DNA from: a virus
Lineage: Duplodnaviria; Caudoviricetes
Virus record (IMG/VR): IMGVR_UViG_2894097338_000001
Location: 32,001 to 96,000 of that record
Length of the DNA stretch: 64,000 bases
Reading direction: 5' to 3' (one strand)
The position numbers and the translations under genes were made by a program. The notes beneath the pieces are model-generated. The model was not told the DNA's origin, did no database searches, and saw only the letters and a program-made list of their open reading frames with translations. Shown here one piece after another: positions 3,841-64,000 of this stretch (positions are counted from its first letter, which is position 1; each line of letters starts with the position of its first letter).

Positions 3841-3896
3841 ATACCTTCTATATTTTTGAAACATAAGTATCTACATCATTTTTTATCTTTGTTCTC

Positions 3897-3925
3897 TTGA
3901 CAAAGGGAACGTTTGTTCGTAAAAT
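3897..3925 (+). promoter_or_regulatory. SigA promoter with a LexA (SOS/Cheo) box in the spacer
   Basis: TTGACA (3897) - 17 bp - TAAAAT (3920). The spacer contains GGAAC-GTTT-GTTCG (3906-3919), matching the Firmicutes GAAC-N4-GTTC box. Confidence 0.85.
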
Positions 3926-4002
3926 GAGAACATAGAAAATTTAATTTGCGGCTGGGATTGTCTGTTGAGTTTTCTGAATATCTTAAGGAACGAGGTTTTT
4001 TA

Positions 4003-4191
4003 ATGGAAAAATACTCTATTGATGCGAGCTTAGAATTTAAAATGATGAACTATATGGTTCACCAAATGACACATATAAACTTTGCTGCTATTATTCTAGT
4101 TGATCAGATAGCAAAAAGTGATGATTATGACGAGGACGTGATAAAAACTGCAAAGGATATAGTCAAAATGTCTGACCTGGCTTATATATAG
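4003..4191 (+). CDS. Small SOS-regulated hypothetical protein (62 aa)
   Basis: ATG at 4003 with a GAGG RBS, downstream of the LexA-box promoter. Confidence 0.6.
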   Translation: MEKYSIDASLEFKMMNYMVHQMTHINFAAIILVDQIAKSDDYDEDVIKTAKDIVKMSDLAYI

Positions 4192-4218
4192 TAATTATTT
4201 AAACGTGTTATGTAAACC
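4191..4218 (+). other. Second, degenerate dif-like site (intact XerD arm)
   Basis: TTATGTAAACC at 4208-4218 is identical to the right arm of the 4300 site. The left arm GTAATTATTTA is divergent. Confidence 0.5.
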
Positions 4219-4299
4219 AAGTATGATATCAAAATCTAAATATTGGGTTAAAATGCTTATTATATAGGTGTTTTACCCCTCTTTTATTTTTTTAAAACT

Positions 4300-4327
4300 A
4301 CTTCGTATAATATATCTTATGTAAACC
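4300..4327 (+). other. dif-like XerCD recombination site
   Basis: ACTTCGTATAA-TATATC-TTATGTAAACC, 24/28 identical to B. subtilis dif ACTTCCTAGAA-TATATA-TTATGTAAACT. Confidence 0.85.
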
Positions 4328-4618
4328 AACTAAATAAAAACCTAATATTTTAGAAAATATAGTGTTCAGAGAAGGTTTTTAACCGATTTAAAAAATTTAG
4401 ATGAGTAGTTAGTAGTTCTGTGTTAAAAAGAATCAGAATCCTCTTGTAGTAATTACTGGCGAAGTGTATCAAAGTCAGTCACCTAATTTTTTGTTTAAAT
4501 ATGGTCTATTGGTATTATAAAAAAGCTCTTAGAAAAATGAATTTCCAAGAGCATAGTATTATTAGTTTAGATATTACTTTAAATATAATTTATTTATATT
4601 TTGTATCAGGCCATCTTA

Positions 4619-5866
4619 TTAATTAAATAGATTTGTTATAGAGGAGACTGCTCTATAAGTTACTGGCTTTTCCCCTATCTGTTCAATGAGGCCTTTCTCT
4701 AAAAGAACTGCTTCTATTTTTCTCATCATATAAGGAGAGATATCTTCATCGACAGAATCAATAATATCTCTTCGTGATAATACTTCTCCAGGATAGTAAA
4801 GTAAATGGTCAAAATATTTTTGAAAGACTTCAAAGGCAAAAGGAACATCTAATAGTTCTTTTTGATAGTTAACTTTAGCTTGATAGCGTAACTGATTATT
4901 TTGTTTTAATTCAAAAACTATTTCTTTTTGAATATCTAAAAGTAATTCTAATAACGCTATAACAAAGAATGTTCCTTCACCAAAATTGTCTTCTTCAGAA
5001 ATGGTTAAAAAAGCTTTTTCGTATTTAGGACGATTTGTTTTAACTGCTCGAGACATAAGTAAACTAGAAACAATATCCAATTCTTTTGCTAAGTAATTAG
5101 ATAAGATAAAACGACCTACACGACCTACACGACCATTACCATCAAAGAATGGGTGAATGTATTCAAACATGTAATGAGAAATAATGATTTTTAGTATATT
5201 GGGAAATTCTTCATCCGGCATATTAATAAAATTAAGCATCGTTGCTAGTTGCTGTTCAATTTTGTCAGGATCTTCACCAAAATGCACTGCTCCACTTGTT
5301 CCACCAACTTGAACAGAATCAGTTCTAAAGAGTGAAAACTCATCTAATTGATTATCAGAATCAACTTCTGGAGATACTAAGTCATCGTAAATTAAACGAA
5401 TATCAGCTGGAGTTTGGATTAATTTACTCTCACCATTAGCAATTTCAGAATAAAGTTTACTAAGACCATAAAAACGATGACTTTCATCGTTTTTTTTGAT
5501 GGCTTGAATAGCTTCACCTAGTTCCTTACGAGTACTTTTAACACCTTCGTATTCGTTCGTTGATTGCATTTCTTCTATGAGTAAATAGTGTAAGTAATCA
5601 TCAATTTGCTTCTTAGAAAGATGTTCCAAGAGAACAGATAGCTTCGTTGATTCCTTATGACATTCGCTTACCAAGTATGTTAGCTTAGGTAGATTATTGA
5701 GGAAAAGATTGTATTCAGTCCCTTTAATCTTAAATCCAATTTTTTTGTTCATGGGGCTAATTATAAAATTAGTTTTCATTGATGAATAAGAGTTAAATCT
5801 TTTATGATATTCTTCTTTGACATCAATAGTTGTATATTTTGACTTGTAAATTTCATTATAAGACAT
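4619..5866 (-). CDS. Fic family protein with C-terminal winged-helix-like domain
   Basis: Fic motif HPFFDGNGRVGR, followed by an extra VGR. Confidence 0.9.
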   Translation of the reverse strand: MSYNEIYKSKYTTIDVKEEYHKRFNSYSSMKTNFIISPMNKKIGFKIKGTEYNLFLNNLPKLTYLVSECHKESTKLSVLLEHLSKKQIDDYLHYLLIEEMQSTNEYEGVKSTRKELGEAIQAIKKNDESHRFYGLSKLYSEIANGESKLIQTPADIRLIYDDLVSPEVDSDNQLDEFSLFRTDSVQVGGTSGAVHFGEDPDKIEQQLATMLNFINMPDEEFPNILKIIISHYMFEYIHPFFDGNGRVGRVGRFILSNYLAKELDIVSSLLMSRAVKTNRPKYEKAFLTISEEDNFGEGTFFVIALLELLLDIQKEIVFELKQNNQLRYQAKVNYQKELLDVPFAFEVFQKYFDHLLYYPGEVLSRRDIIDSVDEDISPYMMRKIEAVLLEKGLIEQIGEKPVTYRAVSSITNLFN

Positions 5867-5879
5867 AAAAGAACACCTC

Positions 5880-5929
5880 TATCGTTAAAAATGTAACTAT
5901 ATTTTAACGATATAATCTTGGTTTGTCAA
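5880..5929 (-). promoter_or_regulatory. Fic promoter with overlapping inverted repeat (putative operator)
   Basis: Minus strand TTGACA-17-TAAAAT (5929-5901). An 11-bp IR tatcgttaaaa/ttttaacgata spans 5880-5912. Confidence 0.7.
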
Positions 5930-5936
5930 TTTATAT

Positions 5937-5980
5937 AAAAAATCTCTGATTCATTTTTATAATGAACCAGAGATTTTTTA
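5937..5980. terminator. Terminator ending the WxL operon
   Basis: aaaaaatctctgattcatt...aatgaaccagagattttt hairpin flanked by A and T runs. Confidence 0.75.
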
Positions 5981-5988
5981 ATAGATTA

Positions 5989-7026
5989 TTAGATTTTTTT
6001 TCTTCTTTTCTTTTTCTTTATTTTTTGTTTTAGCTGTTTATTTTTCCAAATTAAATAAAAAACTAAACCAATAAAAGTAATCAGAACTAGTGACAGTATA
6101 ATTGTAGACCACGGTAAACTTTTTTCTTCTTTAGAAGCAACATTTGAATTATTTAATTTGTTTGCTTCTTCTTTTTCTACAGAAAATTGAAGAGTTTCAT
6201 CCCAAACATTATTACCGGACTTTACTTTAATTTGTGCGTTGTAGTCCCCTGCTAAAAATTTTTTATCATTTATTGGGATAACAAATGAAAATAAACTATT
6301 GGGAGCAATTTTTATAGAATTTTGCTCTCCTTTCATAAAGGTTTGTTCTTTATATTTAATATCATAAGTGAGTGTTACATCTTTTATATATGTGGCTGTA
6401 ACATTTTCCATATTGACTTCAATCGCATTACGTTCGTTATTATGAATAGCTTTAGCATCATTAAAAATAATATTTGGTGTAATCTCTTTTGTACTATTAC
6501 TCAGTAAAATAGCAATTTCCCTCGAGAGAATATTACGAATTGTATTTGTTGCCTCAGATTGAGGGATTTCTATTACGTATAAGGCGCCAGCTAAAGTACC
6601 AGAAAATTCATTTTTAGGCATTTTTACGGTTAAAGTTACTTCCTTTTTTTCGCTGGGGGCTAAATTTACCTCTTTATCACTAAGAGTGATTAATTCTTCA
6701 ATGTTGTAAGGAGCGGTTTTTGAATTATCCTTGTTAGCTCCAGAATACTCAACAACACCATTTTGATTAGTTATAGCTTTATTTATTGAAAGGTTTAATT
6801 TGATTTTTTCGTTAGAATTATTTTCTAAGATAACTGTTAAATGTTCTTCTTGCTCGGGTTTTAATAACAAATCAAAATATGATACATCTTTATTAATTTG
6901 ATATTCTGATGGAGCCTTCTTAATATCGAATTTGTTAAGAACATTATCTGCTAAAGCTATATTAATTGGAAGGATAAATAAGAGTAATAATAAACCTATC
7001 AATGGGTAACACTTTTTAATGTTCAT
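5989..7026 (-). CDS. WxL-interacting protein (DUF916/DUF3324, CscA-like)
   Basis: Signal peptide, SYFDL and AITNQNGVVEY motifs, IAPNS, C-terminal TM segment and basic tail. Confidence 0.9.
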   Translation of the reverse strand: MNIKKCYPLIGLLLLLFILPINIALADNVLNKFDIKKAPSEYQINKDVSYFDLLLKPEQEEHLTVILENNSNEKIKLNLSINKAITNQNGVVEYSGANKDNSKTAPYNIEELITLSDKEVNLAPSEKKEVTLTVKMPKNEFSGTLAGALYVIEIPQSEATNTIRNILSREIAILLSNSTKEITPNIIFNDAKAIHNNERNAIEVNMENVTATYIKDVTLTYDIKYKEQTFMKGEQNSIKIAPNSLFSFVIPINDKKFLAGDYNAQIKVKSGNNVWDETLQFSVEKEEANKLNNSNVASKEEKSLPWSTIILSLVLITFIGLVFYLIWKNKQLKQKIKKKKRRKKI

Positions 7027-7064
7027 AAGATTACACCAAATCCTTTTTATATTTTAATTGTTGA

Positions 7065-7796
7065 TTAAGGTGTTTCAGAAACAACCCAGTTAATATCGGC
7101 AGTATATAAAGCTGTTTCTTTTACAGTATTTGCAGGGATTTCCAACTCAAATTTATCTAGTTTGAGTTTGGTCATTCCTGCACCATTGCCAGCAGAAGCT
7201 GTTAAAAGACTTACTTCTTGGTTAGTTGGTGCAATATTTACAATAGAATTAGGAACACTAATACCTGTTGTAGAAATATTGTTCCATAAGTCACCAGTAG
7301 TAATAGATAATAATGTAGAACCTAAATTTTTTGTAGGAGTAGCAGCTATTGCAAATGGTTTCTCTTGTTTAACTTTAACTTCCCAGTTACCTTCTTCAGT
7401 ACGATTATCTTCAACAAGTAAAGCGCTCACTGTTTGACTAGCTGAATTGTAAGCAGCTGACAACTCATCAAAATCGGTTAATCCTGTCGTATCTACATTT
7501 TTAGCAATCCATTTTTCTTTAGCTGTCGTTTGATTGATATGATATCCGAAGTTTAAATTTTTAGGTAAACGACTGTTCATATTTCCACCAGGTTGTTCAA
7601 CTTCTGGTAGCCCAGTCTCAGGATCGATAGGTTTTGTAGGATCTGTTGGGTCGACAGGGTTAGGATCGATAGTTAAGGCCCCTGTTCCGTACTCAATCTT
7701 ACCTTCAGTATTTGCATTTTGAGCTGCCAATGTAGTAGAACTAAATAGGATACATCCACTTAATAATCCTGTTATTAATAAAATTCTTTTTTTCAT
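7065..7796 (-). CDS. Small WxL-domain surface protein (CscB-like)
   Basis: Signal peptide, LNFG, VEDNR...GNWEV and C-terminal YTADINWVVSETP. Confidence 0.9.
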   Translation of the reverse strand: MKKRILLITGLLSGCILFSSTTLAAQNANTEGKIEYGTGALTIDPNPVDPTDPTKPIDPETGLPEVEQPGGNMNSRLPKNLNFGYHINQTTAKEKWIAKNVDTTGLTDFDELSAAYNSASQTVSALLVEDNRTEEGNWEVKVKQEKPFAIAATPTKNLGSTLLSITTGDLWNNISTTGISVPNSIVNIAPTNQEVSLLTASAGNGAGMTKLKLDKFELEIPANTVKETALYTADINWVVSETP

Positions 7797-8101
7797 TTTA
7801 AATTCCTCCTTAATTGGTATATAGCATAAAAAAATAGTAAAAAGCCAATCAACGACATGCTATAATTAATAGTGTCATTTGTTTGAAGTAACCTTTGTTT
7901 GTTTTTATTTACATCAGAAGTAATTATTGTTTTTGGAAATGATGAGATAGTATCTTCTTTTTCCTCTACCGGTGGTACAAGTGGCTTGCTTTCTTCTGTA
8001 TTTCCCTCAAAAAATTGAATTTGCCCTTCAGTTGTAGTTGCTTCTAATTTTAGAGGGAATAAGAAGATTAATAAGATGATAAATAGATAATTTTTCTTCA
8101 T
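7793..8101 (-). CDS. Small sortase-anchored protein (CscD-like)
   Basis: Signal peptide, LPxTG-like LLQTN, TM segment and basic tail. Confidence 0.75.
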   Translation of the reverse strand: MKKNYLFIILLIFLFPLKLEATTTEGQIQFFEGNTEESKPLVPPVEEKEDTISSFPKTIITSDVNKNKQRLLQTNDTINYSMSLIGFLLFFYAIYQLRRNLK

Positions 8102-8112
8102 AAACTCCCCTC

Positions 8113-9537
8113 CTAAGGTCCATTAGATGCAGTCCAAATAAATTGTGCTTGATAGACACCTTCGTCTTTCTTTAGATTTTTAGGTATAAATAGTTTGAAT
8201 GTTTTAATATCAAATTGTAGAGAACCTCTTCTATCTAAAGTGTTTAACTCGAGTAGTACTTTTTCGTTTTGATCTGTAATTTCTAAGTAATCCGCAGTGT
8301 TTGTAAATGGGTAATTAATGTCTGTGTCTTCAAATCCTGTATATGTTAGCTCACCCCCATATAATTTTAAAATAGAATTTTGTAAAGCAGATTGTTGATT
8401 TTTCCAATTAGATGTTTGTTTTACTTTGATTTGCCAGTTCTTTTCCCCAGACGTCGTATCTGTTAATGAAATTTTTCCTGTTGTAGGGGCGTCTTCTTGT
8501 TCACCTGTACTAGTTGCTATCCATTCCTCGTTATTGAGTGTTTGAATAGTATGTTTTCCAAAATTTAAATTAGTAGGTAAGGCCATGTCAGAATAACTTT
8601 CTTGTTTAAGTGCTTTTAAATATATTGAGCTAAGACTGTTTGAATCTTTAAAAACATCCAATTCAATGACTTCAGTTTGTACAATATGCATATGGAAGTC
8701 TTTTTTTGATATACCGTTAATATCTCCATAAATATCATGTTGAGGTTTATTTATGGTTGTTGGGAATACAACTTCTGTATTACTTAAAATAGAAGCATTA
8801 GCTAGGCTATCTAGCAATTCCGCAGATGGATTAGCAAGTGCATTTGATAAGTTATTTATTGCTGTTGTAAGGGGGCCAATTAACGCTCCTATTAAAATAT
8901 TTCCAGATAGTCCTTTTAAAATGTTTTGTAGCTCAACTACAACACCTTGTAAATTATGAATAATGGCTGATACAAGTCCTGTTTCATAGTCAATTAATAA
9001 ATATGAACCATGATTTAAAATATCAGCTGTATATGAAAGTCTGCCTAAATTAAACAGCCTATCAAGTAAAGCGGAAATTTGTTTAGAGATTGGAAGAACC
9101 AACCCTAAGATTCCTAGGATATCTTTTAATAATTTTGAAATAGTCCCCAATAAACCACCAATTACAGGTGCTTTTTCACTTAATAGGACATCGACTTCAA
9201 TTTTTGCTTGTCCATTAGGAGAAACTTCTCCTATTAATTCTTCGGGAATAACTAAAATCACTTGCTTTTGTCCGTTTAGTATATTTACATCAGTAAGTGC
9301 TTGGCCAGTGACCTTAAAATCAACATTTTTTTTATTTGAAATTGGATCAAAAATGAGTGGTGCTTGGTAAGTAGAATTTGAATTATTTGTACTAACCTGA
9401 TTAGTAAATAGTTCAATACCGATTAAAGACGTTTGCGCATAAGAAATACTTGACAGTAAAAAAATATTTGAAATTAGCAATAACAAGAATACAACAACAA
9501 TTTTTTTCTTTTTTTCATCTGATAAAAGTGTTATCAC
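8113..9537 (-). CDS. Large WxL-domain surface protein (CscC-like, putative adhesin domain)
   Basis: Signal peptide, amphipathic helical middle region, LNFG, NWQIKV and C-terminal YQAQFIWTASNGP. Confidence 0.85.
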   Translation of the reverse strand: MITLLSDEKKKKIVVVFLLLLISNIFLLSSISYAQTSLIGIELFTNQVSTNNSNSTYQAPLIFDPISNKKNVDFKVTGQALTDVNILNGQKQVILVIPEELIGEVSPNGQAKIEVDVLLSEKAPVIGGLLGTISKLLKDILGILGLVLPISKQISALLDRLFNLGRLSYTADILNHGSYLLIDYETGLVSAIIHNLQGVVVELQNILKGLSGNILIGALIGPLTTAINNLSNALANPSAELLDSLANASILSNTEVVFPTTINKPQHDIYGDINGISKKDFHMHIVQTEVIELDVFKDSNSLSSIYLKALKQESYSDMALPTNLNFGKHTIQTLNNEEWIATSTGEQEDAPTTGKISLTDTTSGEKNWQIKVKQTSNWKNQQSALQNSILKLYGGELTYTGFEDTDINYPFTNTADYLEITDQNEKVLLELNTLDRRGSLQFDIKTFKLFIPKNLKKDEGVYQAQFIWTASNGP

Positions 9538-9578
9538 AAAGTTCTCACCTCCTTTTGAATAAACTGTATTTTAAGGAT

Positions 9579-9607
9579 AGAATAACATCATATATCGAAT
9601 AAATCAA
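9579..9607 (-). promoter_or_regulatory. Promoter of the WxL operon
   Basis: TTGATT-17-TATTCT with extended TG, upstream of a GGAGGTG RBS. Confidence 0.55.
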
Positions 9608-9924
9608 CACAATAATAAAATAAGTGGATAAAGTATAGTTGTGATAGAGCTTGAACCAGACTTCCTTATAGAGGTTACACGATTGAATGTGTTTTGCATC
9701 AGAAAGCCTCCCCTCTAAATATAGGCGGTTATGAATGAGCATATCTATATTAAATACCTCCGTTAGTTATATTATATCATAATATTAAGTAATAAAAAGA
9801 TAAGGCATCGTGTATAAGACCTTATCTAAAATATTAAATATTAATCAGCTTACTTATTATTAGAGCTATGAATAATATACCCTGTATAACAAAGAATGCC
9901 TTTAGGAGCGATTTATAATCTAGA

Positions 9925-10623
9925 TTAATCATTATATTTCTGTAGCTCTGCAACGAAAGCCTCCTCAGACTTTCCTCCATAATCTAATCCAAGTTCGTCA
10001 ACAACATAGCTGCTATAGAAGTTATCTTTATTTAATTTAGTCCAGGACGCTCTATTTCTATCTAAATCCTTCTGATTAAGTCTAGCCATGTGGTAGAAGT
10101 TGTCTCCTCCAGCGTATAGCTGCATATAATCTCTTTTCCCTCCAGTTGTAAGTTTAGCAAATCCCTGCTCTTTGGAAACAGAAACTCTATCTTTAACTAG
10201 ATCTCCATATTTAATAACGTGCAGAGAAGGCTCTAGTTCATCAGATCCTACAATCGTAAACTCTGCGTGGAATCCAGATCCGTCTAGAGAATCTGCTATA
10301 GTTGACTCTCCGTCTGGTTTAAATTCAATCCTTCTAGATTTAATAATTATATCATCTTCCAGTATAGAAGATATGTGGTAGATCTTTACCTCATCATCGC
10401 TTTTGCTAGCACCAATCCAGTACCCAGCCATATTATCTATGTCAATTTTTTCTGCATTGGCCTTCTCCTGGTTAATCTTATTCATTGTCTCTGTATACTT
10501 ACCATCAATGCTCTTTCTGGCTGCTTCGACCTTGTTGATTTTAATAGCAGAGAAGGCCACTACAGCTATTAATGACAAACTTAATACTATTAATGCAATG
10601 TCTTTAATTTTAATGTTTTTCAT
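9925..10623 (-). CDS. Membrane-anchored/secreted hypothetical protein (moron-like)
   Basis: ATG at 10623 with RBS, N-terminal TM segment and short coiled coil, own promoter. Confidence 0.7.
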   Translation of the reverse strand: MKNIKIKDIALIVLSLSLIAVVAFSAIKINKVEAARKSIDGKYTETMNKINQEKANAEKIDIDNMAGYWIGASKSDDEVKIYHISSILEDDIIIKSRRIEFKPDGESTIADSLDGSGFHAEFTIVGSDELEPSLHVIKYGDLVKDRVSVSKEQGFAKLTTGGKRDYMQLYAGGDNFYHMARLNQKDLDRNRASWTKLNKDNFYSSYVVDELGLDYGGKSEEAFVAELQKYND

Positions 10624-10657: not shown

Positions 10658-10687
10658 ATTATATTAAAAACCATAAGTATTGTCAAC
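10658..10687 (-). promoter_or_regulatory. Perfect SigA promoter overlapped by an inverted copy of the 19-bp repeated element
   Basis: Minus strand TTGACA-17-TATAAT. Plus strand AACCATAAGTATTGTCAAC at 10669-10687. Confidence 0.85.
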
Positions 10688-12651: not shown

Positions 12652-12692
12652 TCCATCCTCTCATTTCTCCATTTTTCTATAGTTGTAAATAC

Positions 12693-13025
12693 TTATGGTC
12701 TGTTTTTGTTTGGTTCCACCTGTAAGACAAGATCAATATAGTTTTTAATCTTGCGATAGTCACTTGTTGGATCAACTTCATCTTCAAATGTAAAATCTAA
12801 ACCAGTTTCTCCGCTTCTGATTGAATAATTTGATGTGTTAAACTCTTTTTCGGCAAAGATTGAAAAATGCTCGATTCCTTGATTATCTCCTGGTGCGACG
12901 TAAACCGCTCCGTTATCTGATACAAAAGCAACCATAGGAATTTCTTTCTGTTTTTTAACTTCACCTGGACACTTGTCTTTAAACCAATCCCATGACAGGA
13001 TTCCATAAACTTTTGTTGTCTTCAT
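12693..13025 (-). CDS. Hypothetical protein
   Basis: Likely start MKTTKVY. Its stop codon lies inside a 19-bp repeat copy. Confidence 0.6.
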   Translation of the reverse strand: MKTTKVYGILSWDWFKDKCPGEVKKQKEIPMVAFVSDNGAVYVAPGDNQGIEHFSIFAEKEFNTSNYSIRSGETGLDFTFEDEVDPTSDYRKIKNYIDLVLQVEPNKNRP

Positions 13026-13029
13026 ACTT

Positions 13030-13617
13030 TTACTTACCCTTCTTTTTAGTGTATTTTTCACACGTTTTGCTTCCAATGTTAAAGTCGATATTAGCCCTTC
13101 CATCTGTCGCATCCTTTAACACCTTGCATTTCCCTTCTCTAAAGAACCTGCAGGATGAACAATTTGAATTAATAAACTCTTCTCGTTGTTTTTTACTGTC
13201 GAAGAGGCCAACGTATTGAACCCTTCTCAAGACAAAATCGAACCCTGGATTGTCTTTATCGATCCATGCTCGATGTGTCCTTGCGTGAATATTAGAGTCG
13301 TCTTCGTATAAGTATCCGCTGAGAGCGTCCATTAATACTTTGTAATAGTTATTCGTATCTTCTCCAGCGCGCTCCAGTCTAAACCTAAGCTCTAAATACC
13401 AGTGTTGAGTCTTATCAGAAGTTAGATTAATATCCCACCCTTGAGATTTTATCTCCTTCTTAAGCTTATTGCGAAGATACTTTTTAAAGTCTTTAGACTC
13501 TTGTGACTCATACTGTTTAGGATAGCTATGACCACCTTTGGTTTCAACCTTATACTTGAGATAGTTGTTTATTGAAATAGGAAGAGCATCAAGCGACATC
13601 TTAAATTTCTCAGTCAA
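13030..13617 (-). CDS. RusA-like Holliday junction resolvase with C-terminal Cys motif
   Basis: PISINNY and DTNNYYKVLMDAL...EDDSNI motifs. Confidence 0.75.
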   Translation of the reverse strand: MTEKFKMSLDALPISINNYLKYKVETKGGHSYPKQYESQESKDFKKYLRNKLKKEIKSQGWDINLTSDKTQHWYLELRFRLERAGEDTNNYYKVLMDALSGYLYEDDSNIHARTHRAWIDKDNPGFDFVLRRVQYVGLFDSKKQREEFINSNCSSCRFFREGKCKVLKDATDGRANIDFNIGSKTCEKYTKKKGK

Positions 13618-14579: not shown

Positions 14580-14619
14580 AGAATACCATCCGCCTTATTA
14601 GTTGTCAATACTTATGGTT
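14580..14619 (-). promoter_or_regulatory. SigA promoter whose -35 is part of the 19-bp repeated element
   Basis: AACCATAAGTA-TTGACA-17-TATTCT with extended TG. Confidence 0.75.
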
Positions 14620-14623: not shown

Positions 14624-17600
14624 TTAATCAGATAGTTTTTTAAACTTTGAATTACTTGAGTTGCTTAGATCGAAGTCCTTAAGTCTCGTGAACAAGTCAC
14701 TAAAATTAGTTCTCTTCTCTTTGACAAAAGTCTGTTTGACAGCTTTCTTGAAACTTCTTGGTGAAGTTATTAGAATCAGATACTCACTAGCCCGCGTCAT
14801 TCCAGTATATAGTAATTCTCTTGTATTTAATAGATAATGAAATGGCAGCGCGAATATAACGTATTTGATTGTAGAACCTTGAGATTTATGAACTGTAATA
14901 GCATAGCCAAGCTCAATATGTTCAAAGTGCGACTCCAGGACGTTAACAATTCCAATACCTTCAAAATCAATGACTAAGATGTCTTGTTTATCTGTATGAA
15001 TAATTTGCTTAACGGTACCAGTATTTCCATTAAATATTGGACATGGGTTTCCATGAACATCATACATCTTCTTATTGTTTCTCATGTTGATTACTTTCTC
15101 TCCAACATGAACAAAATAGCAACTATCCTCGTCTGCTCCGTCTCTATTTAATTTAATATCTGAGTCAGATTTAGGTTTCTTGTAACCTTTCCTCTTGATG
15201 GTGATATACTCTCCATCCAGGACACCTTTGTTAATCAAAACTCTTTGAGCGAACTTATTGAGATCCCACGTAGATGTTTTACCAGTTGCTTTTGTAGAAC
15301 ACAGGATTTGAACATCGTTAATGTCGTGCTCTTCAATTAGCTTTCTAAAATTAAGCATCACATGTCTAGAAATTTGATCTTCGTCTTTAGGATCAACAAA
15401 AATATACTCTAGATCCTGGTTTTCTCCATAGACTTTAGAACCAATATCAAACTTTAACTCCGTAGGTTTAACTCCATTACGGATTGCAATAGAATGAGTA
15501 ATAATTGCAGACTTCTGAGCCTGTCTATGAATCTGAGTTAATAATTGACTAGGCATTTTACCAGTCTTAATTAATCCAGCCATAATCCCAACTCCAATAC
15601 TTTCAAGCTGCCCCATATCTCCTAACATAATAAGTTTTGCCCCATCTGGTGTAGCTTTTAATACGTCTAAAAACATGAAGATATCAACCATCGACATTTC
15701 ATCAATTACTACAACATCTACAAGCATTTTGTTGTCTTTGTTGTATACGAACCCGCCAGTAATTGGATCTACTACCAGCATAGAATGCAGTGTTGTAGCT
15801 TCTTTTCCAGTAATTAAAAACATATTGTTTGCAGCCTTACCAGATAATGCCCCTTGCTTATACGTCATTCCAGCCTCATTTACTATAGATATGAAGCCAT
15901 TTAGTGTGGATGTGTTATGTGTAACTATATAGTCATTTGTTAGATATAGATGCTCATCATTGTCTACCATGATACACATCATTTCAACCTCTTCTTCCAT
16001 TTCCTCTATATCAACAATGCTTACGCGATCATATCTTTTTCGCTTGACAAAATTTAATGCCTCGATCGCCGTTCTTTTTTTATGCGTATTTCTAAAAAGA
16101 AGCTCCTTCTTATCGTTACTTGTTAGTATATTCAGATTATATTCTATATTCTTCTTATTAGCGCGGTTGGTTTCAGAAACGTTGGACTGTATTCCGAGAG
16201 ACAGCAATACCTCTTGAACATCATATGCAAGCTGCCTGCTATTAGTCGAATACCTTACATTATATCTACCCTCTGCCTTCGAGATACTCCCGTCTGTATC
16301 AAACAAACCTTGTATCAAGGCATATCTTTGATCAATACTACCCATTTTATACTCGATGGGTATTGATTTGTGAATTGAAGTTCTTAATATTTCTGGATAT
16401 TTGGAAAACAACTCTTCTGTCTGGTATCTGTATATCGTATTAATCTGCATATGCCCAAATGAATCCTCTCTTAGTACGGATTTGGGCTTATCAAAATAGA
16501 AATGCCAATTATAATTTTTTGTACTATTTCTTCTATAGTCATTACATCCTATGAGTTTTGAAACCTCTGCCACTACGTCTTCGTCATTACTAGACAGAGT
16601 TAATGCTTTACTTGTACAACTACCGTCACCCAAAAATGCTCCAAGGACATATGGATCAACGCTAAGGTCGCGCTCCCTAAATTCTACAGCTTTATTAGTA
16701 GGAATTTTAAATTTACAATTTCGTTCGCCATTTGAGTAGTTATACAGTCCAGAATCAATGATTTCTCTAAGTGTTCTAGTCTTAAGATTTCCTTTGGATG
16801 TATATGTACTCCATAAATGCTCATCATTAGAAGTTGTCGTTCTTCCGTCTGATAGAGTAATTTTATAATTCTTCTTAAGACCTTGAGGGAATATCTGAGT
16901 TACCATTGTTGGCCTTCCATGTCTATCAAAAATATAGTCGCCAGGCTTCAAGTCTCCAAACCTCCTCATACCTCCAGGAGTCGGAATGATAATGTCCACA
17001 TCCTGCGCCTTCCCTGTCCCGCCATACCCTTGAAGCAAGAATACGTTTTTAGCTATCATCATCTTAATTGATTTTTGCTGCTCTTCACTAAATTTCCAAC
17101 CTTGAGCCTTTTGTACATGTTTAATGACCTTTGCACTGTCTATCAGCCTTTTCAGATTCTTGTTTTCTGAATTTAATAATCTGTTTATTTCATCACACAC
17201 AGCTAATTCAGTTGCCAAAGCCTTAGATGATGTAATTCTAAGCTCTTTGTCCAGTCTATAAACAACATAATTAACGTTTGTTTTTACATGTTCAACAGCC
17301 CACTTAACATCTGCATTGAAAATATTCTCCTTCACCTTGCCAACAAAGTCTTTTGCCGTGATCCACGTATGACCTTCACTATGAAGCTCTTCAAATAGAT
17401 ATTTTATATAAGCCTTGATACGTCTTTTGTCGTTAGGCTTGTTTTCTGGATTATTCAAGAATACAGCGTCAGCTCTCTTAAATCCGTATCCTGGGATTTG
17501 TGTTAATACAAAAGGATCGGCCTCTACCATCATGATAGCTTGCTCGATTCCTCCAAGAGACTTACAAATCTTTTTAACTTGATCCATGCTCAGCTTATAT

Positions 17601-18644: not shown

Positions 18645-18684
18645 TATTGTATATCCTCCAGATACCTCCTCTTGTTGTAAAAAC

Positions 18685-19119
18685 TTATGGCGTAATTGAT
18701 TTAATAAAAATGGCCACGAACATCATTTTGGTAATGCTAACCATCACGGCTGGCAACGAATACTCTGATTCAATTAATTTCAGAGATAGTTTAAGCGGAC
18801 TTTTCTCTTTAGAAGATTGCATTGCTCTTCTATATTGAACAAATGATGCAATCACTGTAAATACAACAAATGCGACCACTGGCATTGTAAAACCAACTGT
18901 AGCTGATAAAAGCAATAGGTAAGCCAAGTCAAATACTAGCGAGATAGCAACTGCCGCCATCATAAGATTGCTGTGGTTTTTATACCCACTTTTTGAAACG
19001 CTTTTCGTTAAATCTTCTACCAGTTCAAGCTTTTTCTTATCTCCAAGAATAAACCTTGCTACTTTTCTAATTCCAAAATAATAAACCGCCATACTTGCGA
19101 TTAAAAATAATACTTTCAT
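18685..19119 (-). CDS. Multi-pass membrane hypothetical protein
   Basis: Several hydrophobic segments and an RBS. Confidence 0.6.
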   Translation of the reverse strand: MKVLFLIASMAVYYFGIRKVARFILGDKKKLELVEDLTKSVSKSGYKNHSNLMMAAVAISLVFDLAYLLLLSATVGFTMPVVAFVVFTVIASFVQYRRAMQSSKEKSPLKLSLKLIESEYSLPAVMVSITKMMFVAIFIKSITP

Positions 19120-22690: not shown

Positions 22691-22730
22691 AATATACTAC
22701 TTAACAATTTAGTTGTCAATACTTATGGTA
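22691..22730 (-). promoter_or_regulatory. SigA promoter with the 19-bp element at -35
   Basis: TACCATAAGTA-TTGACA-17-TATATT. Confidence 0.75.
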
Positions 22731-30008: not shown

Positions 30009-30028
30009 TCCTCCTAAGTTGTAAAAAA

Positions 30029-43131: not shown

Positions 43132-43176
43132 TGTTATACTCTCCTTTTAATTTGTATTCAATTCTTATGGTTCTTT

Positions 43177-45841: not shown

Positions 45842-45881
45842 ATACTACCATCGGTTTTATTGGTTGTCAATACTTATGCTA
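45842..45881 (-). promoter_or_regulatory. Promoter of the replication operon, with the 19-bp element at -35
   Basis: TAGCATAAGTA-TTGACA-17-TAGTAT with extended TG. Confidence 0.7.
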
Positions 45882-49379: not shown

Positions 49380-49408
49380 AGTATACATTCATTTCACCTT
49401 GTTGTCAA
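49380..49408 (-). promoter_or_regulatory. SigA promoter of the recombinase/repressor operon
   Basis: TTGACA-17-TATACT. It lacks the CCATAAGTA half of the 19-bp element. Confidence 0.75.
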
Positions 49409-50138: not shown

Positions 50139-50353
50139 AAATCTATTTACACCTCCATTAATAACAAGTTAACTATCGATTTAATAAGCTTGTCTCTTAC
50201 TATAATTAATTCATTAAATTAATCATTATCTTCTCATTTTTCTATACTCTTTATTGTGTCCAATAAAATAATGGACGCAAATTTTATATTCTCAATTATG
50301 CTAAATAGAAAATTAGTGATAAACATTCATTAATGTTATATAAACTTATGGTT

Positions 50354-50755
50354 CTAATAAGGAAGACCTAATGTATACATCAGCCCCCGAACCATAGCTC
50401 CTTGCTTAGTTTTTTCTAGAGTTCCAATTCTGTGATGAAAGTTATCTTTATCTACTGATTGAATGTTACCTGCATGAATTACTGACTTAGAGTGAAGTCC
50501 ATTCTCTTTACTTACATCTACCACCACATCATTTCTATACTGCTTCTTTAGGTGTTTGTGTTTAATAGAGGTAACTGGTGCTACCAATACTTGACTCGCT
50601 TTGATATTCTCGTGATCAGAAGATAGTACAACACCTGGTCTGACACCACCTTTTACATGATTTCTGTACTCGCCAAAATCAATTAGATAAATATCTCCCT
50701 GCTTAATTTTTAAATATGTTGCTTTTTCTTTGCTGTTACTTTTAGACTTTTTCAT
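50354..50755 (-). CDS. PemK/MazF family toxin (copy 2)
   Basis: QGDIYLIDF, GGVRPGVVLS, LVAPVTS and NGLHSKS. Confidence 0.85.
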   Translation of the reverse strand: MKKSKSNSKEKATYLKIKQGDIYLIDFGEYRNHVKGGVRPGVVLSSDHENIKASQVLVAPVTSIKHKHLKKQYRNDVVVDVSKENGLHSKSVIHAGNIQSVDKDNFHHRIGTLEKTKQGAMVRGLMYTLGLPY

Positions 50756-51545: not shown

Positions 51546-52346
51546 CTAGATTTGATTTTTAGATTGGATCTTCCACGAATCGATAGCCTTTGAGACTCTT
51601 TGAAATTTCCCTTTTGCCGAATCTAATAGAGCGCTCTTTTCCTTAAGAGTTCCGTCTAATTCCCAGTCTTCGTAAACATGTCCGCCAAATCTTAAATACT
51701 CTCCAAGTACAGACCATTCATCTGCAGTAATGTCATTCTTCATACTAATTCACCCGATCCTTTTCCTTTTCAACTGGAATCCATTCTGGCCAAGAATCAG
51801 ATATTACCGTAAACTCTGCGCCCTCACAAACCCAATGGTTCCAATTGCCATGCTTGTCTACGCATAATACTGAGTGCTGTTTTAATTTTGTATAAAACAA
51901 TCTCTCTCCTAGACCAGCATCCTCTTCTGGTTTCGTAAAGTCTTCTACGTCAAAGACCTTCCACCATTCATTATTAACAAATATAAATTTCTTATTCTTC
52001 ATTTCCATATCTCCACTTCTTATTGCTAAATACATAATATCATCGTTTTGATAAGTTGTAAATACTTATGGCTCAATTATTAAAAAATAAATACAAAACG
52101 TTGATACTATCTACTTTTCCACTTTCTATTGGTTCTTTTTACAAACTCTTCCCTTGTTCCTATTTCAGTAAATTCACTTTCAAAAACATAAAATTGCTTT
52201 CCATTTCCTTCTGGAGTAAATAGGTATTTAGGTGGGAATGTAGGATATATAATATCCTTAACAATAGTGCCTACAACATTAGTACCGACGATTCTAACTT
52301 TAGTTCTGTAGCCAACTGAATCCTGTGTTAAAACTAACTTTCTCAT
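51546..52346 (-). CDS. Three small hypothetical genes
   Basis: ORF track and RBSs. Confidence 0.5.
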
Positions 52347-59542: not shown

Positions 59543-60262
59543 TTATTTTTTCACTTCAAATTTTGGACTCTTAACTCTTGCTGTCTTCTCAACGATTCTA
59601 AAACCTTTGTCGTATTTTCCAAGACCAAAGCTATAGTAGAAGTTTGTGCTAAAGTAGTCGATCATACCGTCGCTATCGTCGTATCTATAAGACATAAGCT
59701 GCTCGAAAACATCATTTAATACTTCATATCCAAAATCATTTAAGATAGGCATTTCCTCTCTATCTCGCATTCTATGAATATCAATGTTAATTCCACCTGC
59801 TTTAAAATCTTCTCCTTCTTCGTGATCGTAAAAGTCTACGTAGCAGTTATCTTTAATCTTGTCGCGCTCTAGAATTTCATAAGGGGCCTCCATTGCTGCC
59901 ACGCTGATAGAAGATCCTCCACTATAGAATTGACATGTGATACTGAATTTCCAAGTCGGATAAACTTCTTTTACATATTTTCTTAAGTTTGCTGCAATTT
60001 CTTTTGTTCCAAGATTAGAATTATACTGGCTACCAGCCCATCCATATTGAGTGTAAAATTCAGATCTTGTGCTGCTAGCTGTTTCTGTTGTTTTGACTTT
60101 ACTCTTCGTTTTCCAAATCGGGAATAGCATATCGTATTCATTGTTAATTTCTTTAATTACTGAATCGTCTCCGCCAGTAATGTCTGGATGATGCTTTTTC
60201 GATAATTCTCTAAATTGTTTCTTTAAATCATCAAATGATTTAACTCTCTTAAAATGTGCCAT
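59543..60262 (-). CDS. J-domain (HPD) protein fused to an LPD29-like domain
   Basis: LKKQFRELSKKHHPDITGG; KEIAANLR...FS and YRYDDSDGMIDYFSTNFY. Confidence 0.75.
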   Translation of the reverse strand: MAHFKRVKSFDDLKKQFRELSKKHHPDITGGDDSVIKEINNEYDMLFPIWKTKSKVKTTETASSTRSEFYTQYGWAGSQYNSNLGTKEIAANLRKYVKEVYPTWKFSITCQFYSGGSSISVAAMEAPYEILERDKIKDNCYVDFYDHEEGEDFKAGGINIDIHRMRDREEMPILNDFGYEVLNDVFEQLMSYRYDDSDGMIDYFSTNFYYSFGLGKYDKGFRIVEKTARVKSPKFEVKK

Positions 60263-60280
60263 GTTAATCTCTCCTTTTTA

Positions 60281-60364
60281 ATTGTAAATACTTATGGTTC
60301 TTTGAAACTTTTGCTGATGAATGAATCATAACACTATATACTTTTGTTGTCAATGCTTATGGTT
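60281..60364 (-). promoter_or_regulatory. Promoter with two 19-bp elements (one at -35, one in the leader)
   Basis: TTGACA-17-TATGAT (60353-60325). Copies at 60346-60364 and 60281-60299. Confidence 0.75.
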
Positions 60365-60374
60365 AATATTTTTT

Positions 60375-63300
60375 TTACATACCAAAAGATTCTTCTGCAG
60401 CTTCAATCATTTCTGATTCGTCATTCTCTCTTACCTCTTTGATATACTTGTCAAACATAGATAAAAACTCTTCAAGCTTATATAATTCTTTTACTGCAGC
60501 TGTTCTCTCATTGTGACAAGTATCAATTTCTTCTATCTTATAAGCATGTTTTATTTGACGACCCATTATTTCAACCGTAACTTTTCTATCTTCGATTATC
60601 TTCAAAATGTCTTCTCTACTCATATTTATTTTCCCTCCTGGATAATTTCTTTATTTTCTTGACTATTTCCATCTACGATAATTTTTTCTTTTCGTCCAAG
60701 CTTGTACATTACACTCAATCCCATGTCGTTACCTTCGTACACTGATCTGTAATGGTCGGCTAACATATCCGCCGTCATTATATCCCAACACATAGCAAGC
60801 TCTATTCCTTTGTGATTCTCTATATTATTATCCACCAACATGAATTTATGTTTTCTTCTCATGATTAACTCCCTCTTTTCTTAATTTGTAATTTAGTTTT
60901 TAGCTTAAATGACTCGTAACTCTTCTGTCTAATTCTATCAGCAAAATCTCCTATGTGACTTGTAAGTGGTATCCAATTTCCCTCCTTAGTTAATCCATAC
61001 ATTGTAACATTTCCCTGCTGTAGTCTAAATTCCTCTCTCTTAACCCCTGCGAACTCGCATAACTCTTCTACCAGTCTTTTCTTTTCTTTATTCATTACTG
61101 ACTGTGTAGTGAACTCAATTGACTCAAATTCAAACATTTTCTATTCCTCCTTTATTTTTCATCCATAATTTCTTCAATTTCTGAAATCTCACCATCGCTA
61201 TATCCTAGCTCGTTTAAATATTTTTTATCCTCTACACTAAGCTCTTCGCAACTTCCCAAGAATGAAAAACACTCATTAGTGATTGTTTCTGTTGTACTAT
61301 TTTTGTCTACATCAAACCTCTTAAACCATGCTCTTAAACTCATATTAACCTCTCCTTATTAAAAGTTTTTCTCCATAAGACACTCATAATATGAATGCCT
61401 TAGCAAAAATTCTTTTTATTCCTGTCATCTTTTATACTTTGAAGCAAAGATGACTTGCCCCATAAATTCGATATATTCTTCTCTCTTAAAGCCATCTATT
61501 TTAACTTCTACCTCGTGAGTTGAATCAAGTTGTTCCCTATCATATAAGTTATTCTGTTGATAATTACCTATTAAATACTCTGTATTATCTCTTTTGATTC
61601 TCTTTTCTGGTTTAAAATAATTTTTCTCTGTTTCTGAATGATAAACTAAATATGGTTTTTCTTTAAAAATCTTCATGATATATTCCTACTTTCTAAAATA
61701 ATTGTTTTATCTACATTTCTATTCCACATCTTTTCTAAAATTAACTATCATGTATTCAATCCATTGCTCTGGTGTGCTTCCGTATGTATATCCGTTGTAA
61801 CTACACTGTTTCCACATATTAATACTTATATTTTGACTTATTTCATTTTCTGTACAATTGTGTTCTTCCAACTTTTTATTTAGAATTTCCATATATTCAT
61901 CTTCGGATACTTCGACTTTATAAGAGTCTCTTCCTGTTTCGTACTTTGACTTGATGACCTCTATTCTCATTTCAATTCCTCCAATAAATTCTTTTTATTT
62001 GTGTAATTTTTTATCTAGTTAAAATTCTATATTTGTACATATCTCAAAAGCTTCATGATTAGTAAATTTATCCATTGCCCACTTTTGAAAAGAATAGATA
62101 GCTTCACTTTTTGTAATTAAACCTCTATCAAGTAAAGATTTTTCTTTATTGTATCTTTCATTAACCTCGCTATTCTCTGCTAAATCTAACAAGTGTGTAA
62201 AGTTATATTTTTCCATTTCAATTCCACCTTTATTTTATTTTTCTTGATAAAAGAAATATTCTATCAATCGTGTTCGCTTTGTTCTGCGATTATTTCCGCC
62301 TTTAATTTTTATTTTTTTATTAGTCTTCTTTTGAATTTTCAAAATCTTCGATTCGTTTCATTGCGATGTTTACTCCCACCAGTAACGCATTATCATTCTT
62401 GATTTGATCGACAGTCATTCCAAGTGCTTCAATAGCAGGATCAGCGTCATAAGTATATCCATATTCATGGTTGTTTAGCTCGTACTCAAACATATCTGCG
62501 ATATATCCTGTTCCGTCTTTATCTTCTGCGATATTTCTTTTTTCTTCTGCCCTTATCTCTTCAAACATTTTTTCATAAGCTTCTGCGTCAGTTTTTCTAA
62601 TGATTCCTCCACCTGCAATTGATAACACTTTGTCTTTGTCGTCTTTTGTAAGGCCTAAATCATTCATTGCTTCCTCGAATTGTTTTTCATCAAAGAAGAA
62701 TCTCATAGGAAATTCGTTTACTCGTTTTTGATGTCTGCTTTTCATTTCTGCGTATTTGTTAGTCATTTTATTTTCCACCTTTATTTTTTAGTTTTTGTAT
62801 TCTTTATATCTAAGTTCATATCCAATATTTTCCGATGTTTCTATGTACCACTGTTCGTGGTCTCGATAATTTTCTTTTGTTTCTGACTGACTAGCTAGGT
62901 TTTTCATAAAATTGTCGGCCGCTTCAAAGTCTTTATAATTTGTCGATGTTTGGCCGCTCATTGTTGATTTTATTATTACGGCATTTTCTAATTTCATGAT
63001 GTCTCCTTTCGATTTTTATTAACCTTGCTTATCACTGCGTTTCGCATTTAATAAAATTTCTTTTTATTTCTGACAATAATTATTGCTGACCGACAATTAC
63101 TTGTGGACGATTATTTAATTGGTATAACATTACTACTTGATTAATATAAGACTTCTTCTTATCTAATTTATTAGCTACCTCTAATTGAGTTAGTCCATAA
63201 GATAATAGATGTCTAATGTCATTCGCTAGGTTTGACGTTTTGTTCTTTCCGTTTTCACTCATTCTTGTTGCTAAGGCCAAGTAAGCTGATAGATTATTGT

Positions 63301-63888
63301 TTTCGCCTTTTACATAAGATACTTCTGTAATAATTCCATTCTGCTCTAATCTCGCGATTGTCTTAAGTCCTCCAACAAATTTTCTGTTCTCATAAGTCAC
63401 GTTGCCACCATTTAATTTTGTAATATCAAACCCTAAATTTTTCATTTTTCTTCCTCCTAAAATTTCTTTTTAATGCTGCCCTACATATTTGTGTATTTAA
63501 CGTTTTCTCTAGCTCTCATAGTTAGATAAAATTCAATTTCATCATCGTTGTAGCGTCCATCATAAATATCTGATAAGCCTATATTTGCTTTTCCTTTAAC
63601 CTCTTCTGCAATTTCTTTCATTCTTTCCTGTGTCATCTTTATTTCCTCCTAGATTAATTTCTCTAATGATTTTTCTAATACTAAAGCTTCTACGTCGTCA
63701 TATGTGTAGTCAGTTAGGAAAAATTCTAAATCTTGCTGACCATCTGTCACACCGTCTAGCCACTTCTCAACAAACTCTCTTTCAAACGCGACTACCTTCT
63801 CGACACCTTTTTCTTCATAGTATAAAATTACTGGGTTTATAATCATCTTGTTTCCTCCTAAAATTTTTTTAATTGCTCCATAGAACAC
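60375..63888 (-). CDS. Array of small early hypothetical genes; 63080-63445 has a C-terminal HTH
   Basis: ORF track; GLTQLEVANKLDKKKSYINQV. Confidence 0.55.
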
Positions 63889-64000
63889 TTAATTAATAAG
63901 TGCTCTAGCAACGATTAAAGATGTAAATACTTATGGTTTAATGTGTTGTTACTGATATTCCATGTAAGTCACTTGTAACGAACAGCGTATCGCAACCATA

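Follow-up and report, generated by a model that had tools for sequence, protein, structure and literature searches.

A dispersed, directional 19-bp box as the probable operator of an integrase-fold master repressor in a 122-kb SPbeta-like phage-plasmid

The master repressor of phage SPbeta, which carries the names MrpR, YopR and SroF, is a monomer with a recombinase fold from which most of the catalytic residues are missing (PMC10516654). Sequencing after chromatin affinity purification (ChAP-seq) of MrpR yielded ten peaks on SPbeta, located at genes known to carry the repeated element SPBRE, and the derived 15-bp motif matches SPBRE; binding and repression were confirmed by electrophoretic mobility shift assays and lacZ fusions (PMC10516654). 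The SroF of phage phi3T, likewise a monomer, forms a clamp on an asymmetric box of 26 bp, 24 of which it reads. Its sites are spread over the phi3T genome, different SroFs have different motifs, and the repressor is released by Sar, a small LexA-controlled antirepressor that forms an α/β dimer (bioRxiv 10.1101/2025.11.27.690993). In cluster A mycobacteriophages, a monomeric repressor (L5 gp71) uses asymmetric sites in promoters as well as short intergenic 'stoperators', the orientation of which is tied to transcription; a reversed site loses the elongation block (PMC9283540). Here, we describe a directional 19-bp box that recurs throughout a 64-kb stretch of tailed-phage DNA (IMGVR_UViG_2894097338_000001; hereafter the window, bases 32001-96000 of contig C54), together with the protein encoded at 46601-47866 of the window. 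The original prediction had proposed this protein as the binder of the box, by reference to the binding of dispersed SPBRE by MrpR/YopR in SPbeta, which agrees with PMC10516654. We estimate a probability of about 0.7 that the 19-bp word is the phage-specific operator or 'stoperator' box of this integrase-fold protein, which would act as the master repressor, the binding and the roadblock function being extrapolated from sequence and from described relatives.

The pattern AACCATAAGTATTKACAAC has 19 matches in the window at up to three mismatches, compared with a mean of 0.06 and a maximum of 1 in 100 shuffled sequences, which bears out the earlier claim of about 20 dispersed, directional copies. 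All 19 coordinates listed in that claim are real, and 17 of them are among these matches. The copy at 30018 has four mismatches and hence lies beyond this set, while the copy at 35401 is genuine and spans 35401-35420 but is absent from gapless scans because it contains a 1-nt insertion. Three window copies extend the earlier list, at 624 (two mismatches), 46264 (three mismatches) and 45409 (four mismatches). Conservation is asymmetric and sharply limited to the 19 bp, with a 5' flank that is only weakly A/T-rich. The box is also confined to its replicon. At up to three mismatches, C54 contains 30 copies in 122 kb, whereas the remaining 54 contigs (2.76 Mb) contain two, and the comparison of the replicon with the host chromosome, which had been put forward as a check, thus comes out in favor of a replicon-specific element. 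The half-site words CATAAGTA occur 28 times on C54, with five occurrences outside boxes, approximately the host background rate. A 17-base core of the box gave 0–5 scattered matches at up to two mismatches in each of 35 other genomes of the same family, near the backward-read control and in contrast to the 30 copies here. Exact-pattern scans with this core returned 97 stretches in genome contigs and 25 in viral contigs. All of the latter, and the best 80 of the 97 former except for one Pedobacter chromosome, are single matches in unrelated organisms, and these scans found no further carrier of a box array. The excepted record, the Pedobacter sp. chromosome NZ_CP157485.1 (Bacteroidota, unrelated), has three exact core matches within 18 kb at 1296-1314 kb and is the sole multi-match record among the matches listed (best 80 of 97); this trio is probably a local repeat without relation to the present system.

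The placement of the box follows the organization of the genes. On C54, 25 of the 30 copies are intergenic, although only 14.3% of the contig is non-coding, and 27 are co-oriented with the nearest open reading frame (ORF), in agreement with the predicted location at gene junctions and the predicted direction. The plus-strand copies occupy the arc that starts at about C54 113 kb, passes the origin and ends at 42.7 kb, and the minus-strand copies the arc from 44.7 to 111.9 kb. Two classes of box had been distinguished, one supplying the TTGACA −35 element of a promoter and one preceding a ribosome-binding site (RBS) without a −10 element, and both are real. The promoter class was read by sequence alone: among the 22 copies with up to two mismatches, a predicted −10-like hexamer lies 16–18 bp after the TTKACA of the box in 11, compared with a background of 10.4% (p = 3.7e-6), and several of these promoter-class copies have a TG extension. 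Such boxes are situated upstream of the transcription start of their own promoter and therefore outside that transcript. The RBS-adjacent class comprises nine copies that end 1–12 nt before the Shine-Dalgarno sequence and 12–30 nt before the start codon; the absence of room for a −10 element excludes them as promoters of the gene that follows. In our ORF calls, the upstream gene has its stop codon within the box at 18674, at 30018 and, beyond the window, at C54 99516, and the ORF list shows that ORFs 12693-13112 and 21740-21949 end within the boxes at 12682 and 21729, so that all four cases named earlier (12682, 18674, 21729 and 30018) hold. Position 14 of the box is G in seven of nine promoter-class copies and in three of nine copies of the other class, a difference that is not significant (Fisher p = 0.15). 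Two copies are inverted relative to an adjacent promoter. The copy at 10669 occupies the −35 element and the spacer of a promoter on the other strand that matches the consensus at 12 of 12 positions and follows an intrinsic terminator, and a second one, at C54 111880, abuts the −35 element of a divergent promoter. When intergenic promoter-like sites of C54 that are oriented with a gene are ranked, three of the best 12 are free of a box. They precede the operon of the YopP-like and candidate repressor genes, a Fic gene, and a small ORF that has a LexA-like box. The weaker promoter-like sites that precede replication and partition genes are likewise box-free. The copies in the window, with the terminator associated with the inverted one, are as follows (window coordinates; mismatches to the pattern in parentheses).

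624-642, plus strand: box within ORF 4-1320, of doubtful function (2 mismatches)
3859-3877, plus strand: degenerate box, 20 nt upstream of the promoter with the LexA-like box (3 mismatches)
10669-10687, plus strand: inverted box over the −35 element and spacer of the minus-strand TTGACA-17-TATAAT promoter at 10686-10658 (1 mismatch)
10735-10716, minus strand: terminator preceding the 10686-10658 promoter (read from the sequence)
12682-12700, minus strand: RBS-adjacent box in which ORF 12693-13112 ends (1 mismatch)
14601-14619, minus strand: promoter-class box, TTGACA-17-TATTCT with an upstream TG (0 mismatches)
18674-18692, minus strand: RBS-adjacent box containing the stop codon of ORF 18685-19119 (3 mismatches)
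21729-21747, minus strand: RBS-adjacent box, start codon 12 nt on, in which ORF 21740-21949 ends (2 mismatches)
22712-22730, minus strand: promoter-class box, TTGACA-17-TATATT (1 mismatch)
24404-24422, minus strand: RBS-adjacent box overlapping the 3' end of ORF 24408-24752 (1 mismatch)
30018-30036, minus strand: RBS-adjacent box with the upstream stop codon inside (4 mismatches)
30735-30753, minus strand: box with the start codon 21 nt on and a −10-like TATATT abutting the ATG, of ambiguous class (0 mismatches)
35401-35420, minus strand: box with a 1-nt insertion at the junction of the exonuclease and DNA polymerase genes (gapped copy)
36668-36686, minus strand: promoter-class box, TTGACA-17-TATGAT, 91 nt before the exonuclease gene (0 mismatches)
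43154-43172, minus strand: RBS-adjacent box before the Sak4-like gene; the related plasmid p35B2_c1 has its box at the same junction (3 mismatches)
45409: box copy beyond the earlier list (4 mismatches)
45863-45881, minus strand: promoter-class box, TTGACA-17-TAGTAT with TG, before a peptidase gene (2 mismatches)
46264-46282, minus strand: degenerate copy within a 154-aa ORF, of doubtful function (3 mismatches)
50335-50353, minus strand: box directly after a MazF-like gene, −10 element not found (3 mismatches)
52055-52073, minus strand: promoter-class box, TTTACA-17-TATTAT with TG, heading a gene run toward the repressor operon (1 mismatch)
60281-60299, minus strand: RBS-adjacent box, start codon 18 nt on (1 mismatch)
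60346-60364, minus strand: promoter-class box, TTGACA-17-TATGAT with TG (1 mismatch)
63920-63938, minus strand: intergenic box, −10 element not found (1 mismatch)

The 421-aa protein encoded at 46601-47866 was modelled with AlphaFold2 from a nine-sequence alignment (predicted local distance difference test score, pLDDT, of 81). The top Foldseek match is the phi3T SroF–DNA complex (9rd5, E = 2.4e-11), followed by MrpR (8a0a, 4.2e-11); the SroF, MrpR and YopR entries range from 2.4e-11 to 6.7e-10, after which comes XerA at 1e-5. VIA-align of model residues 81-421 gave Z-scores of 18.2–18.9 for five SroF/MrpR/YopR entries with 278–305 residues aligned, compared with 13.3 for XerA and approximately 11.5 for Cre, and phi3T SroF is the best structural match (9rd5 and 9rgl, Z = 18.9). 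Residues 1–80 form an extra N-terminal domain in the model. At the profile level, the sole PHROG family of the protein is phrog_5830 (E = 5e-17), which SPbeta YopR matches at 4e-117, and hhalign to YopR gave a probability of 77% (E = 2e-5, 240 columns). Identity to YopR at the BLASTP level was not found, nor was a match to PF00589 at E-values up to 10, and a sequence search of solved structures gave no relative (best E-value, 0.49). Sixteen database homologues carry the precomputed label MrpR_C_cat, their sources including Vagococcus fluvialis and an Enterococcus faecalis plasmid, and closer relatives of the repressor, at 93–51% identity (among them 93%, 86%, 74%, 53% and 51%), are known as protein records. 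The product of 46601-47866 is, on the basis of its predicted structure, an MrpR/YopR/SroF homologue with a two-domain tyrosine-recombinase-like fold (core-binding, CB, and catalytic, CAT), and it is the only protein of this kind found in the genome. The surrounding region comprises the following features.

46601-47866, minus strand: candidate repressor gene, 421 aa, integrase fold (structure model and PHROG)
47892-48254, minus strand: 120-aa ORF between the repressor and YopP-like genes (ORF call)
48251-49339, minus strand: YopP (SroD)-like integrase-fold gene (BLASTP)
49380-49408, minus strand: box-free promoter-like site TTGACA-17-TATACT before the YopP-like and repressor genes (read from the sequence)

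The 362-aa YopP-like protein shares 25% identity with SPbeta YopP over 284 aa (BLASTP, E = 1e-16), and its Phage_integrase matches are below threshold. Its gene shares the strand of the repressor gene and lies two positions upstream of it, with the 120-aa ORF in between. Two further small ORFs follow the repressor gene, and a 93-aa ORF is found two genes after it. The promoter-like site at 49380-49408 carries TTGACAAC, the 3' half of the box, without the CCATAAGTA half. No other sequence-specific regulator was detected by PHROG (118 ORFs) or Pfam (73 ORFs), apart from one sub-threshold Crp-type helix-turn-helix (HTH) match, and the Pfam scan of these 73 further ORFs revealed neither an Xre/CI-type repressor nor a sigma factor.

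Relatives of the repressor were sought in other genomes. A tblastn search of the phage collection with the repressor gave no match, and a profile search with the repressor alignment returned nothing from genome contigs or viral contigs and three short metagenome contigs of 2.7–4.6 kb, which are too short for a repeat search. Two genomes of the same family, G007 and G010, encode distant repressor homologues (approximately 30–33% identity) in non-syntenic surroundings; no dispersed repeat was found around these homologues, and both genomes are therefore uninformative on the box. In G007, the repressor homologue of about 30% identity has a CRISPR-like array approximately 7.5 kb away, in which 31 repeats recur every 66 bp (G007:C15, L027:17-2000). 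Tblastn against plasmids identified three Vagococcus fluvialis plasmids of approximately 135 kb and four weaker Bacillus cereus matches. One of the former, the syntenic p35B2_c1 (NZ_CP081467.1), was used in its entirety for the single comparison that was made. Matches in p35B2_c1 were obtained for 66 of the 157 C54 ORFs, with a median identity of 46.7% over the 53 with more than 60% coverage, and its repressor homologue is 31% identical to the 421-aa protein (E = 6e-49). The window box has no copies in p35B2_c1 at up to three mismatches. Instead, this plasmid carries 27 copies of AAACAATAAAGTTGACAAC, versus 0 for the reversed control, and all 27 are co-oriented with annotated genes and occur in the same two placements. 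The 3' half TTGACAAC is identical in the boxes of C54 and p35B2_c1, whereas the 5' half differs. For 10 of the 20 C54 boxes with a downstream orthologue within 1.5 kb, a p35B2_c1 box is found in the corresponding interval, where approximately one would be expected by chance (an estimate from box density). In neither element does a box occur inside the repressor operon, and in both the strong promoter-like site in front of this operon is without the specific half. In this comparison, the box is thus phage-specific and differs along with the repressor, having turned over in p35B2_c1 while its position was kept.

These features resemble the switch of SPbeta. Our scan of SPbeta located 11 SPBRE copies upstream of the ChAP-seq genes, all co-oriented with the gene and either embedded in a promoter or directly preceding an RBS, as at the yopM, yopV and yonX sites. 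The window box likewise is non-palindromic and dispersed over a large (>120 kb) SPbeta-like genome, is found at promoters and directly before ribosome-binding sites, and is co-oriented with genes (11 of 11 in SPbeta, 27 of 30 here); the repressors share their fold and their PHROG family, and a YopP homologue is encoded upstream of the repressor in both. With phi3T it shares the long asymmetric box, the many genome-wide sites and the phage-specific pairing of repressor and box, and SroF acts there as a monomeric clamp. Consistent with these parallels, the 19-bp box is probably the counterpart of SPBRE in SPbeta and of Phi3TRE in phi3T. The differences from SPbeta are that approximately 30 copies are present here in contrast to 11 SPBRE copies, that the repressor has 421 aa with the extra 80-residue N-terminal domain, that the host belongs to Lactobacillales and the replicon is circular and plasmid-like with ParA-like and replication-initiator-like genes, and that arbitrium genes were not found by tblastn or by Pfam and PHROG scans (SPbeta AimR gave no tblastn match on C54, and no family of the tetratricopeptide repeat (TPR) or AimR type appeared in the two scans). 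Unlike the 26-bp, A-tract-rich box of phi3T, the box described here has 19 conserved bp and a weak A/T-rich flank, and no Sar homologue was recognized. The arrangement is also reminiscent of cluster A mycobacteriophages, in which many asymmetric sites lie in promoters and in short gaps within operons, oriented with transcription. The monomeric state is reported for the cluster A repressor and is presumed here from the protein family. However, the cluster A repressor consists of an HTH domain and a stoperator domain rather than an integrase fold, which makes the resemblance a functional analogy only; its sites are 13 bp long rather than 19 bp, and the orientation-dependent elongation block, which is experimental there, would hold here by extension.

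Taken together, these comparisons suggest a mechanism in which each asymmetric box would be clamped by one repressor monomer, and, as published for the family, the protein would thereby silence the box-bearing promoters in the plasmid state. Roughly half of the boxes would provide, through their TTGACA, the −35 element of a host sigma-A promoter, so that a bound repressor would block initiation. The two inverted copies are associated with other promoters, one covering a −35 element and its spacer and the other being positioned directly upstream of a −35 element. The remaining boxes lie in short gaps before ribosome-binding sites inside operons and always point with transcription; by analogy with the 'stoperators' of mycobacteriophages, a repressor bound there would most likely stop read-through transcription. 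Genes that are presumably needed in the plasmid state, namely the repressor operon and those for replication and partition, would escape repression through their box-free promoter-like sites. The TTKACAAC half is retained in the RBS-adjacent copies, which may indicate either that the protein reads both halves of the box or that sigma contacts of RNA polymerase matter. The earlier proposal of the 46601-47866 protein as the binder of the box is supported: it agrees with the fold, with membership of phrog_5830, with the YopP neighbor, with the SroF precedent and with the separate box of p35B2_c1, whereas binding itself is an extrapolation from these facts and the polar roadblock is drawn from analogy only.

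Several observations weigh against the assignment of the box to this repressor. The box sequence is unrelated to those of SPBRE and the Phi3TRE box, and SPBRE lies between the −35 and −10 elements whereas the box here lies upstream of, and includes, the −35 element. The Pfam MrpR models score below their cut-offs for the 421-aa protein (MrpR_N_CB, 19.3 bits versus a cut-off of 27). When 16 SPbeta proteins were tried against C54 by tblastn, only the terminase and the polymerase were found; homologues of YopM, YopN, YopO, YopQ, YopR, AimR and YonO were not found on the replicon, and the remainder of the SPbeta switch is thus not visibly conserved at the sequence level. The change of box in p35B2_c1 is not attributable to the repressor alone, because the comparator has diverged everywhere (median identity of 46.7% over 53 ORFs). 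Since TTGACAAC is common to the box of the relative and to the promoter, free of a box, that precedes the repressor operon, a portion of the motif may be a mere −35 element, leaving approximately 11 specific bases. There is some circularity in the finding that 9 of the best 12 promoter-like sites (intergenic and gene-oriented) on C54 overlap a box, given that the −35 element in these cases comes from the box. Finally, the accessible text of PMC10516654 and of bioRxiv 10.1101/2025.11.27.690993 reports no elongation block by MrpR-type repressors, and the words stoperator, orientation and elongation are absent from it.

Two further points against the assignment concern the identity of the binder. 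The YopP-like protein of 362 aa is a second protein with an integrase fold, its gene being near that of the repressor and on the same strand, and the boxes at C54 111611 and 111880 have beside them a 255-aa ORF with a sub-threshold HTH_Crp_2 match; either is a possible binder. Alternatively, the box might serve as a site, centred near −40, for an activator of early or middle promoters, given that the specific half of the promoter-class copies spans about −37 to −48, the region bound by class II activators. Nevertheless, the promoter-class boxes already possess a consensus TTGACA, a good −10 element and TG extensions, so that an activator should be unneeded, and an activator would leave both the RBS-adjacent boxes and the inverted copy in a promoter spacer unexplained. 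The SPbeta repeat has been shown to be bound by the YopR homologue (PMC10516654), and the 255-aa ORF has no detectable homologue in p35B2_c1 although the box architecture is the same there. We therefore regard another phage factor or an activator as unlikely. The word might instead be an extended promoter module for the host RNA polymerase, consisting of a −35 element with an upstream element and requiring no dedicated trans-acting factor. Its 3' half is indeed TTGACA or TTTACA, a correctly spaced −10 element follows in 11 of the 22 copies, and TTGACAAC recurs both at a box-free promoter and in the box of the relative. Yet nine copies are too close to a Shine-Dalgarno sequence to accommodate a −10 element, a start of transcription and a leader, the upstream half does not resemble an A-tract and is not the same in two related elements from related hosts, the word is nearly absent from the host chromosome (2 in 2.76 Mb), and one copy is inverted within another promoter. 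This explanation is quite improbable, and the phage-specific promoter that the original prediction had listed among its alternatives fits the box anatomy poorly when taken as the only function.

An action in RNA, as a leader element before the RBS for translation, processing or antitermination, would suit the RBS-adjacent copies, which are transcribed in operon mRNAs, always in the sense direction and just before the Shine-Dalgarno sequence. The promoter-class copies, however, are located upstream of the point where their own transcript begins, and the inverted copy falls within the spacer of a promoter; the RBS-adjacent copies fold no better than shuffled sequences (6 of 6, z from −0.17 to 1.86), conservation ends at the 19 bases, and Rfam 15 gave 0 matches in the window at the gathering score. 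The antitermination or translation element suggested earlier is thus a poor match to the anatomy of the box, and we consider it very improbable. The word has also been compared with a polar signal for chromosome handling, like the FtsK-orienting polar sequences (KOPS), or for packaging or segregation, that would point toward a dif site or terminus. Around the circle, its orientation flips twice, once near C54 43-44 kb and once near 112-113 kb, and the sign of the GC skew follows gene orientation. Against this, 25 of the 30 copies are intergenic instead of being spread through coding DNA, the word has a length of 19 bp and is associated with promoters and with ribosome-binding sites, its orientation is inseparable from gene direction, and SPBRE, a proven repressor site, has the same anatomy (PMC10516654). 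Because the copies are intergenic 19-mers, the KOPS-like alternative is unsupported, no search for a dif site having been made, and it appears scarcely credible.

If the box is the operator of the 46601-47866 repressor, it extends the SPbeta-type switch to large phages with plasmid-like character from relatives of Vagococcus and Enterococcus. The box sequence is new in this case, the repressor is longer, and an arbitrium module is not visible. In the accessible text of PMC10516654 and bioRxiv 10.1101/2025.11.27.690993, this switch appears only for Bacillus arbitrium phages, although Table S5 of the latter (SroF–Sar pairs) may include non-Bacillus homologues; the word Enterococcus is absent from the text of that preprint, and a literature search for Vagococcus with phage-plasmid or SPbeta gave no paper containing 'Vagococcus' among the matches listed. 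A broader and more tentative idea, which we hold to be possible rather than probable, is that integrase-fold repressors of the MrpR/SroF type are both promoter blockers and orientation-dependent elongation roadblocks, so that 'stoperators' would have evolved independently of the HTH repressors of mycobacteriophages. The box would then be modular, with a conserved TTGACAAC half doubling as the sigma-A −35 element and a variable 5' half, approximately 11 bp in length, that determines the specificity of immunity and evolves together with the repressor. Under such modularity, new immunity types would arise through the change of one half-site at approximately 30 positions at once. C54 and p35B2_c1, which have different boxes at the same junctions, form a natural pair suited to swaps of immunity specificity, and the strict orientation of the boxes together with their position in gaps before ribosome-binding sites makes the stopping of elongating RNA polymerase by the repressor a directly testable question. 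For a 122-kb element that is otherwise unannotated, the list of boxes also indicates where promoters and the limits of operons are likely to be.

The release of such a repressor may involve the region at 3898-4191 (plus strand). The best LexA-like box of the window, GGAACGTTTGTTCG (GAAC-N4-GTTC, 3906-3919), lies there in the spacer of a TTGACA-17-TAAAAT promoter, and the 62-aa ORF behind it (4003-4191, plus strand) is 84–90% identical in three relatives, one of which has it on a contig equal in length (90,946 bp) to the contig of a 74%-identical repressor. This ORF belongs to no Pfam or NCBIfam family. Its product could act as an antirepressor under SOS control, although the structure predicted for it, a helical hairpin, differs from the α/β fold published for Sar.

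The replicon itself has the character of a phage and of a plasmid. C54 is 122,341 bp long and has an identical 127-bp stretch at both ends, and therefore represents a circle of 122,214 bp; its G+C content is 35%, versus approximately 38% in the large contigs. A PHROG scan of 118 ORFs identified a portal protein, a 2732-aa tape measure protein, tail proteins, a holin and an endolysin, as well as a split polymerase of the PolIII-alpha type, helicases and a Sak4-like protein, and, as plasmid functions, a ParA-like and a replication-initiator-like protein. The element is a circular 122-kb SPbeta-like phage-plasmid, that is, a large tailed phage with predicted plasmid functions. Megablast of 12 kb of the window against phage and plasmid collections gave no match.

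Several neighboring genes merit description. A cargo block at 4619-10623 (minus strand) contains Fic-domain, WxL, WxL-interacting surface-protein and putative adhesin genes; the Fic gene has its own box-free promoter-like site, and the genes upstream of it follow the perfect consensus promoter that contains the inverted box. The 1154-aa RecD2-like helicase at 14624-18088 (minus strand) has a LAGLIDADG-type insert, which is likely an intein. The polymerase of the PolIII-alpha type at 30758-35357 (minus strand) consists of a 701-aa and a 393-aa ORF, which are split by a 336-aa endonuclease gene at 32166-33176. Two MazF/PemK-like toxin genes are located at 22777-23241 and 50354-50755 (minus strand), the second just upstream of the repressor region; the arbitrium system of phi3T works via the host MazEF system (PMC10769878). 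Outside the window, at C54 111726-111791 (L014:15726-15791), two direct repeats of approximately 25 bp, 41 bp apart, each hold a small inverted repeat of the CGTCG-TTTTT-CGACG type. They lie in a divergent control region between a helicase gene and the 255-aa ORF with the weak Crp-type HTH match, and could represent either an origin or a site for a second regulator. A transposase gene is encoded within the tail-gene arm on the opposite strand (L012:13559-14767 of C54, outside the window), and beside it lie box copies at C54 15815 and 15908 and a true tyrosine integrase gene at C54 17205-18269.

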